Below, piece after piece: positions 35,101-38,100 of a stretch of DNA of 44,077 nt. Source of the DNA: a virus (taxonomy: Duplodnaviria > Heunggongvirae > Uroviricota > Caudoviricetes); IMG/VR virus record IMGVR_UViG_2537561936_000014, positions 1 through 44,077 of that record; one strand, written 5' to 3'. Position 1 is the stretch's first letter, and the number at the start of each line of letters is the position of its first letter. The position numbers are program-made.

Positions 35101-38100
35101 ATGATGACCTCTTGTATCTTTTTCGAAGAAGAACCAAAGTGGCGTCGGGAGGTTCGAAACGGCTACAAGTACCGCGGACTTATTCCCCTTTCGGGTGTTG
35201 TATTCGTCGCCCTCCCGACATTGATCGGGGATGTGGTTGCACATGATGCAACCACTGAAAAAATAGGCATAAAAAATCCAACACTGACGGGGTTGGTTGC
35301 GTACCGCTTGTAAGAGGTTTCGACGCCTCAGTTCGGATTGTAGCCAGAGTTGGATGCCGTAGTCAATTTAATGATAGTGCATCATATCTTTTTGCCCTCA
35401 AGATGGCACTGGTAAGACGTTCCGCCGTGTTCATAAATCGCCCAATCAATAGCTTCTCCAGAAATCCGATTAATAGTTACGTGAGATTGAGGAATCCAAT
35501 TAACTTTATCCCTAGATGCCTCGACAGTATATTCTATACGTAGGTCATTAATTGTTGGGCGATTGACTCTAAACCAAGTATCATCACGGCCTAATGATTC
35601 GTTGTTTTGCATTATAATTACTGATTCAGTAAACCACGTTGTTTTTTTACCATCGGCAACACATGCATTTCCAGAGTCAATTCTAATATTAAAGCATAAT
35701 TTATCATTTAAAAGGTAAGGTTGGGGCCAGATTGCGGAGGTTGCGGTGTCGTTGCTATTAGATGGCTTACATATTATTCTTGATATGTTAGATGAGTGTG
35801 AAGAAAAACTCACAAAAAGAAGTAGGGATAAAAATTTCAATTTCATAAATATCACCGCCTGATTTTACATGTTTTCTTTACAGGAATTGATTGCAGCTTT
35901 ATATGCTTCCGGGAGGCCATCTAATGGGAAGAATAGTTTTTGTGGTTTTTCTTTGCTTTCAGCTGGCGGAGTGTACCAAAAAGAAAAACTACCTTTCCCT
36001 TTAGCTTTTAACAAATCACTAATCTTTAATGAGCTAATAGGACTGAACAAGTAACCCTCATTGATAGATGGGGTTGTTATAGAGTCCTGCTTTTGTTGTC
36101 CGCTGATTTTATAACTTACAGGAAGGAACGGTGGTAAATCCATTTGTTTATATCCAATAAAATGATTGATAGTTACATCACCGGGCTCACATTGAGTTAA
36201 TGGTGATATATCAATAAATAAAGTTGATTTATCCTGTGGCAATTTGGATTCAACACCAATACGATAAGCCATAGTGGTAGGCATGGTAAATTCAGCATAA
36301 TACCATTTACCGAACTGTTGAATGTCATTCATTCTCTCTGTGGCATCAATTGCATGAGAAACACCAGAAAATAGCAGTGAGCTAATCAAAATCCCTAATG
36401 AGTTAAATTTCATAAAATCCTCTTGAGATTAATTATGTCAGAAATACCAATTACTATGACCAGTGCGGGTGCGCAGCCTACGCCACCCAATGATTTGCTT
36501 GCGAATCTTATCACCAGAGTTGCTGAAAAAGTACCTGGATATACAGCCAACCTTCCGGCGGGGCTTATTACAGACCTTGCCAGCACGGCTGTCGGGGCGC
36601 TGGCATTAATAGATCAGGCGCGAGTGGATCTTATTAACTCCGTCAGTCCATACGGCGCGAATATTCCTCTACTGATGCAACTCGGAAACATTTATGGAGC
36701 ACAGAAGGGATTAAGTACAAATACGGCGGTATACGTGGTGTTTGAGGCGTTGCCGGGGTTTGGTATCCCTAAAGGATTTGTGGTTGGAGACGGTAACTAC
36801 CAGTATGCGGTTTCCCGCGATACGGTGGTGCCGGAAAGTGGGCAGACTGAACCAGTCTACTGTGTGGCCACTACGTCAGGCTCATGGGCTGTACCGGAAG
36901 GGACCGTGACGCAGGTCATTACATCAGTACCCAAAGACCAGCCTGTAAAATGCACCAACCTAACCGCAGGGATGCCAGGTCAGGAGGCGCAAACGTGGGC
37001 ATCATACCGCGCCGAAGTCATGGAGTCCGGCATGTTTGGTGTGCAGGGAACACCGGATTGCTTTAAAGCGATGCTCAAATCAGTAAGCGGTGTGCGAGAA
37101 AACCTGATTTCTTTCCGGCAGTCGTCGTTGGGGAAATGGGTTGCGGTTGTTGGTGGCGGTGATCCGTATGATGTGGCTTATGCGATTTACAAATCCGTAC
37201 CGGATATTTCGAAACTGACCAACGATGTAAGCAATCCATCCGGTGCGGCAGTGGAAAAACGCACGGTTTCAATAACCGTTTCGCCGGACGTTTATCAGGT
37301 GCCGTTCGTTATCCCGTCATCACAAAACGTCATGGTGCTAATCACCTGGAACACGGTGTCTGATGATTATGTTGATCCGGCGGGTATTGCTATGGCAGTG
37401 CAACAAAACGTTGCTGATTACATCAATTCAATTGAAGTCGGACACCCGATAAATCTTCTGCGTATCCAGGATATTTTTACCAGTTCTGTCAGGTTGCTGG
37501 TTGATGCGACGTTGATCTCAACAATCAGTGTGAGCATTGGCATTAACGGCCATATTGTTCCTCCGGCAAAAGACACAAGCCTGGTTTATGGCGATACCTA
37601 TTCCTATTTTTCAACGGTGGCATCACAGGTTCAGGTCAACAAGTATGCAATATCTGACTGAGAAAATTCTCCCTGCTTATCCATTTGTGCAGTACAGAGA
37701 TGATCCGAATGTTGTTGCGTTCTTTGATGCATACAATGAAATTGCTCAGGAATACCTCGATTCACTCAACAATCTGGCATTGCCATGCTGGACATCGGAA
37801 TCAATAACCGGGCAATTGCTGGACTGGATTGCACTCGGGATTTATGGCGTTGAAAGGCCTTTACTACAGGTTTCCGAGGAGGCTATTGCACGAGGCGCAT
37901 ACGATACCATTGAATACAATACGATCCCGTATGCAGCAATGCGGAATTATGTTCCGGGGCAGGCATCGTATGTACCTGATGATTATTTCAAACGAATATT
38001 AACGTGGAATTTTTATAAGGCTGACGGTTCGCATTTCTGCATTGACTGGTTAAAGCGACGTGTGGCGCGGTTCATTCATGGAAAAAACGGAATAGCCCCG

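Follow-up and report, generated by a model that had tools for sequence, protein, structure and literature searches.

Probable moron proteins beside the baseplate J gene of a Rac-SA53-like Escherichia coli prophage, one with a predicted IalB-like fold

The exported prophage morons Bor and Lom of lambda and SodC of Gifsy-2/Sp, as well as the lipoprotein exclusion factors Llp of T5 and Cor of phi80 and N15, are targeted to the bacterial envelope and are dispensable for phage growth. Their genes are AT-rich, separately oriented or expressed, and lie in or beside the tail region. Here, we describe two neighbouring open reading frames (ORFs) that share these genomic traits, ORF A and ORF B, in a viral sequence of 44,077 nucleotides (IMG/VR record IMGVR_UViG_2537561936_000014, positions 1 to 44,077; this whole stretch is called the window below), which derives from a temperate phage of Escherichia coli and has an integrase, a RecE-type exonuclease and a Q antiterminator among its genes. 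The classical morons and exclusion factors are lipoproteins, outer-membrane barrels or an enzyme of a known family, whereas the predicted products of ORF A and ORF B are soluble, lack a lipobox and match no such family.

Among envelope-level exclusion factors, we know of almost no soluble, non-lipoprotein example other than Spackle (gp61.3) of phage T4. Spackle is a soluble periplasmic protein that binds and inhibits the gp5 tail lysozyme of an incoming phage (PMC7677548). It is small, phage-encoded, made with a cleaved signal peptide and free in the periplasm, and can thus serve as a functional model for ORF A in particular, although its gene is among the early genes of a phage that is lytic and ORF A and ORF B are probable prophage morons. 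The fold of Spackle is said to be helical and unrelated to our models of ORF A and ORF B, and Spackle was not retrieved by structural searches with either model; the parallel is therefore drawn as a proposal on mode of action and not as a claim of membership.

The only family that ORF A resembles is IalB (PF06776/COG5342; PDB 3DTD, from Bartonella henselae). In Bartonella, IalB is a signal-peptide protein needed for erythrocyte invasion, with a disputed cellular location and an unknown mechanism, and an IalB-domain protein of Sinorhizobium is an essential periplasmic factor of polar growth. In addition, a moron protein of the Pseudomonas syringae prophage PamPP1 has been reported to be structurally similar to 3DTD (preprint 10.64898/2026.07.06.736757). 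Like ORF A, the PamPP1 protein is a prophage accessory protein, and it would represent an independent case of an IalB-type fold as phage cargo; it comes from another phage family and another host, and its likeness to ORF A is judged from its description.

AT-rich, reverse-oriented morons for exported proteins at tail-region hot spots are already known, and the sequences studied here have been deposited as hypothetical proteins or as PHROG families of 'unknown function'. To this our analysis adds the assignment of an IalB-like fold to ORF A, the placement of ORF B in a small undescribed family of predicted disulfide-bonded barrels, the separation of the evolutionary histories of the two genes, and a description of their genomic site, the slot flanked by the gpW-like gene and the gpJ-like baseplate gene, as a library in which the exported cargo proteins are unrelated to one another.

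Two exported proteins of small families

ORF A and ORF B are very likely independent lysogenic-conversion ('moron') genes and not parts of the virion, encoding exported, all-β proteins with conserved cysteine pairs. The first-pass annotation of this DNA had noted two minus-strand ORFs within 35382-36413 and proposed that they are exported prophage cargo. Both are indeed present there (Table 1), within a 35% GC island (0.35-0.38 over 35400-36400, against 0.47-0.55 in the flanks), and both are reversed relative to the surrounding tail operon and baseplate module. Homology to tail structural proteins, which the annotation had named as the finding that would speak against cargo, was not detected, as neither ORF has a tail-family match among PHROGs or Pfam. 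Furthermore, in prophages with baseplate genes 88-100% identical to those of the window, ORF A and ORF B are missing or replaced, one or both. One or both are likewise absent from prophages whose tail genes are more than 90% identical. Since such close relatives have the same tail genes without one or both ORFs, the two are not tail structural proteins; this role was rejected in view of their opposite strand, their signal peptides and their dispensability.

Signal peptides were called from rule-based features combined with conservation in family alignments, which cover 13 relatives for ORF A and 24 for ORF B. ORF A begins with MKFNSLGILISSLLFSGVSHA, laid out as MK-FNSLGILISSLLFSGV-SHA with ID following the predicted cut, and thus has a lysine in the n-region, a 15-residue hydrophobic core and S-H-A at positions -3 to -1. 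Its core, with a Kyte-Doolittle maximum of 2.47 over nine residues, is the sole hydrophobic segment of the protein. The AXA cleavage site (ANA, AHA or SHA, then V/I/A-D/N) is kept in 13 of 13 relatives, and the signal sequence itself varies. ORF B begins with MKLKFLSLLLFVSFSSHS, laid out as MKLK-FLSLLLFVSF-SSHS with SN following, has a Kyte-Doolittle maximum of 2.6 and contains no second hydrophobic segment; in its family, AXA-type sites lie 3-5 residues ahead of a conserved I-x-C, and here too the hydrophobic form is kept as the sequence varies. The Sec-type signal peptides that had been assigned to both ORFs are thus borne out, their form being conserved across both families.

The cysteines of the two proteins bear on whether either is lipid-anchored. 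The first cysteine of ORF A is residue 75, leaving none before it for a lipobox, and C75 and C178 form an invariant pair in the alignment of 13 relatives. ORF B has four conserved cysteines, C26, C51, C62 and C147, the first of which lies eight residues past the hydrophobic core and is preceded by R-I-I. Across the ORF B family, residues unsuited to a lipobox (V, S, D, Q, K, R or E) precede the equivalent of C26; C26 itself lies past the polar c-region. A lipoprotein nature of ORF B was therefore rejected, the lipobox [LVI][ASTVI][GAS]C being fitted by a single homologue (LIAC), by chance, and the earlier statement that neither protein is a lipoprotein is upheld. A single hydrophobic segment together with cysteine pairs is as expected of soluble proteins that become oxidised in the periplasm, and these sequence features support the prediction that ORF A and ORF B are soluble, Sec-exported and periplasmic, with no membrane or lipid anchor.

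The first-pass coordinates of ORF A stand, and those of ORF B were revised at its start, which had been placed at a GTG (35855) leaving a gap of 9 nucleotides between the genes. This GTG is spaced only ~1 nucleotide from a possible Shine-Dalgarno sequence. The ATG at 35846 is preceded by a suitably spaced Shine-Dalgarno-like sequence, aligns with the initiator methionine in all ORF B homologues and is the start called by PGAP in an identical prophage; for these reasons, we take ORF B to encode 154 residues and to begin 18 nucleotides past the ORF A stop codon. The start codon of ORF A, in turn, is only 21 nucleotides away from the divergent start codon of baseplate J (36435).

Both proteins belong to small families. 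ORF A spans the full length of phrog_31333 and ORF B that of phrog_26680, each annotated 'unknown function' (family matches of 3e-101 and 6e-131, respectively). The exact ORF A protein occurs in 272 public contigs and the exact ORF B protein in 261, under the name 'hypothetical' or, once, 'periplasmic or exported protein'; the three RefSeq accessions searched for appear in no paper, and the phage Rac-SA53 is mentioned in the literature once only, in an unrelated survey. Homologues of ORF A reach down to 48% identity with constant length and a retained signal peptide; when 5.8 billion proteins are clustered at 90% identity, they make up 17 clusters. A profile search of these 5.8 billion proteins yielded only four extra close homologues and no relatives below 48% identity, and no ORF A relatives were found in a set of one genome per GTDB species. 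The ORF B family, with 36 representatives among 1.84 billion proteins, reaches down to 23% identity, again with constant length and a conserved signal peptide. Profile searches matched neither sequence family to Pfam, NCBIfam, PADLOC or PDB sequences, and 24 diverse ORF B members matched no Pfam family or PDB sequence, confirming at the sequence level the first impression that the two have no recognisable family. In ORF A, pairwise ratios of non-synonymous to synonymous divergence (dN/dS) are 0.05-0.18, and in ORF B they are 0.15-0.17; at synonymous divergences (dS) of up to more than 1, these values indicate that both are genuine genes under purifying selection.

To place ORF A structurally, we used AlphaFold2 with the 13-sequence alignment. 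The resulting model is a β-sandwich that closes with a long C-terminal helix (predicted local distance difference test, pLDDT, 75; predicted template modelling score, pTM, 0.69). Confidence is moderate, with pLDDT above 70 in only one of five models, for ORF A as for ORF B. The model agrees with the β-sandwich and C-terminal helix of 3DTD at a structural identity of 13%. ORF A shares with IalB a Sec signal peptide and a single domain of ~160 residues, and in both the β-sandwich ends in a strand-strand-helix arrangement. For sequence comparison, ialB of Bartonella bacilliformis was recovered via a published primer and its match to 3DTD confirmed, and a 12-sequence IalB alignment was used that includes ten rhizobial plasmid homologues. 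Aligned with hhalign against this set, the ORF A family scored a probability of 10% (E 0.003), with only the colinear C-terminal 40 columns aligning. The aligned strand-strand-helix motifs, LKAxxxG...FFPLxGFxxAY against LRAGxxL...FxVSLKGFxxAL, amount to a weak colinear pattern of L-(K/R)-A-x-x, strand, strand and L-x-G-(F/L)-x-x-A.

Other comparisons separate ORF A from IalB. The Pfam IalB model was not matched by ORF A at E up to 1, nor by 13 family members at E up to 10; a PDB profile search with ORF A did not retrieve 3DTD; the profile search of 5.8 billion proteins contained no sequences bridging ORF A to IalB; and canonical IalB sequences matched no phage family among PHROGs. The invariant cysteines of IalB (C55, C64, C125 and C130 in B. 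bacilliformis numbering) are absent from ORF A, and C75 and C178 are not equivalent to them. IalB genes are chromosomal or carried on megaplasmids in Alphaproteobacteria, whereas ORF A occupies one prophage slot, in Enterobacterales only. Because the Pfam and cysteine comparisons are negative and the hhalign score is weak, we regard ORF A, judging from its model, as IalB-like in fold and not as a demonstrable member of the family.

ORF B was modelled as an all-β meander of 12-13 short strands (pLDDT 72, pTM 0.67). With ~135 mature residues and antiparallel up-and-down strands, the model is comparable to calycin-type barrels (FABP, lipocalin, YceI, PliC/MliC), and its best structural neighbours are meander barrels of the FABP, SAHS and OpcA type. 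None of these is a clear structural match with a Z-score well above background, and the calycin and FABP-lipocalin family sequence signature was not found. A search of BFVD with the model gave nothing significant, and comparison of ORF B with IalB gave nothing. Structure prediction gives ORF A a predicted IalB-like fold and leaves the first-pass verdict of no recognisable family standing for ORF B. In the ORF B model, the conserved cysteines are found on neighbouring strands, C26 and C147 on the first and last strand and C51 and C62 on a hairpin, which fits a disulfide-stapled barrel. The family conserves the motifs LCF(N/D), GRD, FRV, INR(L/I)(S/T)G and EHGG, and polar and aromatic residues are densely retained (GRD, FRV, Y..E..R, W, INR, EHGG); such conservation resembles a ligand or target site that is itself conserved more than it resembles a fast-evolving interface.

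A cargo slot beside baseplate J

The window represents a Rac-SA53-like temperate myovirus of E. coli, with structural genes for terminase, portal, capsid, tail sheath, an SLT-domain tail protein, baseplate hub, spike, gpW-like and gpJ-like proteins and tail fibres. Over the ORF A/ORF B region, it shares 98.8% identity with Escherichia phage Rac-SA53; prophages of pig enterotoxigenic E. coli (ETEC) and of a calf isolate are closer still, at 99.6-99.7%. We mapped the genes that neighbour ORF A, ORF B and baseplate J in ~60 related loci and in annotated genomes (loci surveyed for slot contents include L058-L115, L003, L056 and L057). The slot varies in length from 2 bp to 3.1 kb, accommodates more than 12 alternative gene families (Table 1) and is empty (2-13 bp) in three distant relatives. 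Alignment of cargo variants places the cassette boundary at most ~15 nucleotides upstream of the codon at which the cargo gene starts. Among the occupants of the slot are at least six mutually unrelated signal-peptide proteins, namely ORF A, ORF B, the proteins here called alt-1 and alt-2, and proteins of 248 and 129 residues; alt-1, alt-2 and the 248-residue protein have no Pfam family above threshold. This comparison of sequences shows the slot to be a recombination hot spot for cargo, enriched in envelope-targeted and defence-like genes. It is thus a compact natural library, in which at least six unrelated exported proteins are swapped beside baseplate J, and is suited to systematic phenotyping.

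Table 1 Features of the window around ORF A and ORF B, and contents of the equivalent slot in related loci
Feature	Position or locus	Strand	Remarks
ORF A	35865-36413	-	182 residues; mature ~161 residues, ~18 kDa, pI ~5.9 (mildly acidic)
ORF A signal peptide, codons 1-21	36351-36413	-	predicted signal peptidase I cleavage after SHA
ORF A Shine-Dalgarno AAGAGGA	36418-36424	-	strong; 4 nucleotides before ATG; read from sequence
ORF B	35382-35846	-	154 residues from ATG; mature ~136 residues, ~15.5 kDa, mildly acidic
ORF B signal peptide, codons 1-18	35793-35846	-	predicted signal peptidase I cleavage after SHS; no lipobox
ORF B Shine-Dalgarno-like GGCGGTGA	35852-35859	-	6 nucleotides upstream of ATG; encloses the earlier-proposed GTG
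Cargo slot between gpW-like gene and baseplate J	34564-36434		holds ORF A, ORF B, sRNA-Xcc1-type element and AntA antirepressor, all on the minus strand
Baseplate J (gpJ-like)	36435-37661	+	ATG at 36435
gpW-like baseplate gene	34216-34563	+	
Tail protein with SLT lytic transglycosylase domain	29323-31311		
Spike and hub proteins	32246-33966		
AntA/AntB-type antirepressor	34539-35102	-	187 residues; Pfam AntA 7.8e-27; PHROG anti-repressor; separate from the ORF A/ORF B finding
sRNA-Xcc1 structured RNA (Rfam RF02221)	35136-35219	-	78 bits vs gathering score 53, full-length model; 34 nucleotides upstream of antirepressor start
Slot content: ORF A + ORF B + antirepressor (Ant)	window and identical prophages		
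Slot content: ORF A + truncated Ant	L002 type		
Slot content: ORF A alone	Buttiauxella, Salmonella		
Slot content: ORF A + Bro-N protein	Salmonella		
Slot content: ORF B alone	L026		behind 100-nucleotide 5' remnant of divergent ORF A allele
Slot content: alt-1	L003 3112-3651	-	179-residue signal-peptide protein, WP_000733801/2; 25 E. coli genomes including strain W
Slot content: alt-2	L057 2994-3485	-	163-residue signal-peptide protein, WP_063080808
Slot content: 248-residue signal-peptide protein	7 loci; e.g. L073 slot ORF 882-1628		sub-threshold LprI lysozyme-inhibitor motif (E 0.0033)
Slot content: 129-residue signal-peptide protein	2 loci		
Slot content: HSDR_N restriction-nuclease-like protein	21 loci		391 residues; PD-(D/E)xK; 5.6e-14
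Slot content: YafO-like toxin with 190-residue partner, ProQ/FinO-like protein, two membrane proteins			

ORF A and ORF B differ in their distribution. Among 5426 complete E. coli genomes, baseplate J of this type was found in 89, ORF A in 19 and ORF B in 10, so ORF A is mostly carried without ORF B. Homologues of ORF A, which were found in E. coli, Citrobacter, Salmonella (two contexts), Buttiauxella and a metagenome at 50-100% identity, always adjoin baseplate J and are divergent from it; this includes the copies in Salmonella, Citrobacter and Buttiauxella, which are directly divergent from baseplate J at 50-67% identity. The divergence of ORF A is comparable to that of the neighbouring baseplate genes. 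Homologues of ORF B occur without ORF A in the same slot (L026), on plasmids and at unrelated prophage positions. They were found on an IncFIB Klebsiella plasmid and on a ParAB plasmid-like contig, between the head and tail-fibre modules of a Raoultella prophage, adjoining a GAPS4 defence system in Pectobacterium, and among ordinary chromosomal genes in Pantoea.

The histories of the two genes also appear to be separate. A common origin was rejected, with an hhalign probability of only 2% between the families. In Citrobacter, an ORF A allele of 67% identity stands beside an ORF B allele that falls within the same 90% cluster as that of the window, and therefore indicates separate evolutionary histories. 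The co-occurrence analysis, in which each ORF is found without the other, and the lack of kinship between the families are at odds with the earlier treatment of the two ORFs as a functional pair. On the same grounds of separate histories, a two-gene operon acting as one functional unit was rejected. Because their genomic contexts differ and their families are unrelated, we regard ORF A as a long-term resident of the slot and ORF B as a mobile add-on. In this prophage, the two genes are probably co-transcribed.

Two variants record rearrangements within the slot. The L002 variant has an 816-bp deletion corresponding to window 35027-35842 (L002 3000/3001), which takes out ORF B and the sRNA-Xcc1 element together with ~25 codons at the start of the antirepressor gene, and joins the ribosome-binding site and ATG of ORF B in frame to antirepressor codon ~26. 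Since L002 keeps these ORF B signals fused to the antirepressor, the three-gene arrangement must be older than the L002 variant. In L026, a ~100-nucleotide 5' remnant of a divergent ORF A allele (4884-4982), consisting of the start codon and the signal-peptide-coding part, precedes an intact ORF B (5001-5465), which in this layout presumably uses the expression signals of ORF A.

Several records from this survey merit separate mention. Actinobacillus phage vB_Apl-pPE4 (PP818812.1) is 97.6% identical to the window over ORF A and baseplate J, which is surprising for a Pasteurellaceae host and may reflect host mis-assignment or contamination of the record. Two RefSeq records labelled E. coli DH5alpha (H128 and H130; L116) encode prophage proteins identical to those of E. 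coli W, and their strain label looks doubtful; the alt-1 hits in these records were discounted as evidence on K-12, the prophage proteins being of E. coli W type. In a Raoultella prophage (L011 6001-7675) and in the Klebsiella variicola plasmid pKP187 (L013 5893-7573), the ORF B homologue is followed by a cytoplasmic protein of 378-380 residues with no known family. Independent co-occurrence of this pair was rejected, since the two copies are 91% identical and represent one mobile segment. In pKP187, the ORF B reading frame is cut short by a stop codon five codons ahead of the normal end. In two viral contigs (L028 3230-4171 and L030 1-927), a small signal-peptide protein of 111 residues, MNVRFAISLFLCLSASQAFA..., with no known family, is encoded next after the ORF B homologue and in the same orientation. 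An Hcp gene and the GAPS4 defence pair lie within 5 kb of the ORF B homologue of Pectobacterium (L006). Finally, the Buttiauxella prophage that has an ORF A homologue (L004) carries, just beyond its tail-fibre assembly gene, a module of Hcp-Tlde1 and a 167-residue protein (820-2182) that looks, from its gene content, like effector-immunity cargo of a type VI secretion system (T6SS) at the prophage end.

Proposed periplasmic protection and competing explanations

We propose that ORF A and ORF B encode protective periplasmic binding proteins, a reading to which we assign a probability of roughly 0.35-0.4. Both proteins would be exported into the periplasm of the lysogen by Sec, with cleavage of the signal peptide, and would act there as stoichiometric binding proteins that shield the envelope from outside attack. 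In the likeliest form of this mechanism, a superinfecting phage would be blocked at the point where the tail tip, with its muralytic domain, passes through the periplasm; phage exclusion specifically is a more tentative proposition, which we consider doubtful. ORF A would then be a partner of the tail-tip or SLT protein of this phage group itself, and ORF B, as a mobile add-on barrel with conserved polar motifs, would bind a conserved envelope ligand or enzyme. Of the two, ORF A is the better candidate for the tail-tip or SLT partner, and ORF B is more likely to be a binder of an envelope ligand or enzyme. We favour ORF A for exclusion because it is fixed beside baseplate J and diverges in step with the tail genes, and because the phage tail contains an SLT domain. 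The furthest-reaching version, in which ORF A is an exclusion protein co-evolved with the tail tip and the slot is a dedicated envelope-defence hot spot that includes ORF B and the other exported proteins, seems rather unlikely.

A number of observations weigh against periplasmic protection, and against phage exclusion in particular. Gene-wide dN/dS values of 0.05-0.18 reveal no arms-race diversification of the kind often seen in exclusion and immunity proteins. ORF A, ORF B, alt-1 and the antirepressor had no match to PADLOC-DB defence models at E up to 10, and no consensus sigma-70 promoter was found within 600 bp upstream of ORF A. The plasmid and chromosomal-island contexts of ORF B show no tie to a particular phage, and the AlphaFold2 models of both proteins, as stated above, are moderately confident. 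Lastly, the processes with which IalB, the family ORF A resembles in fold, has been associated are invasion of host cells and growth of the envelope, and phage resistance is not one of them.

Alternatively, the proteins may be host-interaction or colonisation factors, promoting adhesion, invasion, or serum or stress resistance, with ORF A acting like Bartonella IalB. Other prophage morons, namely Bor, Lom and SodC, alter the dealings of a lysogen with its animal host. The carriers of the genes are mostly livestock-associated ETEC and Shiga toxin-producing E. coli (pig, calf, sheep, buffalo, goat), strong purifying selection would fit a conserved host or self target, and a role in pathogenicity has been proposed for the 3DTD-like moron of the P. 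syringae prophage (preprint 10.64898/2026.07.06.736757). However, the livestock bias may reflect only phage host range and sampling, and the comparison with IalB leads to a protein whose own mechanism is unknown and whose location is disputed, and to whose family the Pfam, PDB profile and cysteine comparisons do not tie ORF A. A soluble periplasmic protein would moreover need a further export step to reach host cells, none of which is encoded nearby, and nothing ties ORF B to virulence; we consider this explanation unlikely. A role that retains protection and replaces the attacker would make the proteins inhibitors, or 'orphan immunity' proteins, against non-phage assaults on the envelope, such as host lysozyme, T6SS amidases or L,D-transpeptidase effectors, or colicin M-type toxins. 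Their size, export, and predicted β-rich folds and disulfides resemble those of the periplasmic inhibitors PliC/MliC, PliG and Tsi/Tai. A sub-threshold LprI lysozyme-inhibitor motif is present in the 248-residue protein of the same slot, an LprI-domain protein adjoins a plasmid homologue of ORF B, and Hcp or Hcp-Tlde1 modules occur within 5 kb of an ORF A homologue (L004) and of an ORF B homologue (L006). Yet the LprI match is under the Pfam threshold, Hcp and LprI genes were seen nearby in only a few cases, perhaps by coincidence, and no cognate effector gene is adjacent to the ORFs, leaving this a decidedly unlikely role.

Hitch-hiking cargo, which at present would benefit neither phage nor host and would persist only through linkage and recent spread, would fit the rarity of the genes (0.2-0.35% of complete E. 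coli genomes), the very small size of their families (17 clusters for ORF A and 36 representatives for ORF B, as given above) and the frequency of deletions and truncations in the slot. It is made improbable by the low dN/dS (0.05-0.18) maintained over divergences of up to dS >1, by intact reading frames with cysteines and motifs conserved down to 23-50% identity, and by the retention of ORF A at one position across four genera. This same conserved position beside baseplate J, together with the failure to find a lysogenic promoter, could also be read as a sign that the proteins serve the lytic cycle of the phage itself, whether by timing lysis or aiding assembly from the periplasm or as minor components of the tail; the genes would then not be lysogenic-conversion genes. 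The genes, however, are oriented against the late operon, the lysis genes are located elsewhere in the window, downstream of the Q antiterminator, and a Sec signal peptide is incompatible with tail assembly in the cytoplasm; in addition, there are prophages whose tail genes are almost identical but from which one or both ORFs are missing, or in which unrelated cargo takes their place. A lytic-cycle role is thus very improbable.

Should the proposed protection of the periplasm be correct, and phage entry or muralytic attack be blocked there, a soluble, non-lipoprotein class would join the short list of envelope-level exclusion factors. Exclusion by ORF A would provide the first molecular function for the IalB fold, that of a periplasmic protein-binding module, and with it a testable function for a fold whose tie to virulence has gone 30 years without a mechanistic account. 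The other signal-peptide proteins of the slot, ORF B included, would then be further undescribed exclusion or immunity factors. If the two are instead ordinary fitness genes or neutral cargo, they simply add to the hypothetical morons already known, as a pair from an E. coli prophage that is rare and associated with livestock.

Expression signals, antirepressor and structured RNA

Candidate expression signals were read around the two genes. By eye, an extended -10-like element, TGACATAAT, can be recognised at 36427-36435 on the minus strand, where it overlaps the start codon of baseplate J on the strand of ORF A; this candidate element could drive ORF A and ORF B. No canonical terminator was found after ORF B. 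A second promoter-like sequence, TTGACT and TACAAT separated by 18 nucleotides (35337-35366, minus strand), lies just past the ORF B stop codon, upstream of the unit formed by the sRNA-Xcc1 element and the antirepressor gene.

The sRNA-Xcc1 element was found upstream of every full-length antirepressor gene in related loci, twice in L021, and is absent where the antirepressor is truncated or missing. It therefore travels with the antirepressor gene and not with ORF A or ORF B. In a preprint on APSE phages, the same RNA family was reported upstream of an ORF6N protein. These associations suggest that sRNA-Xcc1 may be a cis-acting leader or small RNA of antirepressor-type genes, and not a free-standing Xanthomonas integron small RNA as it has been described. 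Between ORF B and the antirepressor, a non-coding segment of ~114 nucleotides (window 35253-35366) is 80% identical to a region adjoining or inside antirepressor genes in 91 Stx2a-converting and Shigella phages, which points to an antirepressor control region conserved across otherwise unrelated phages.

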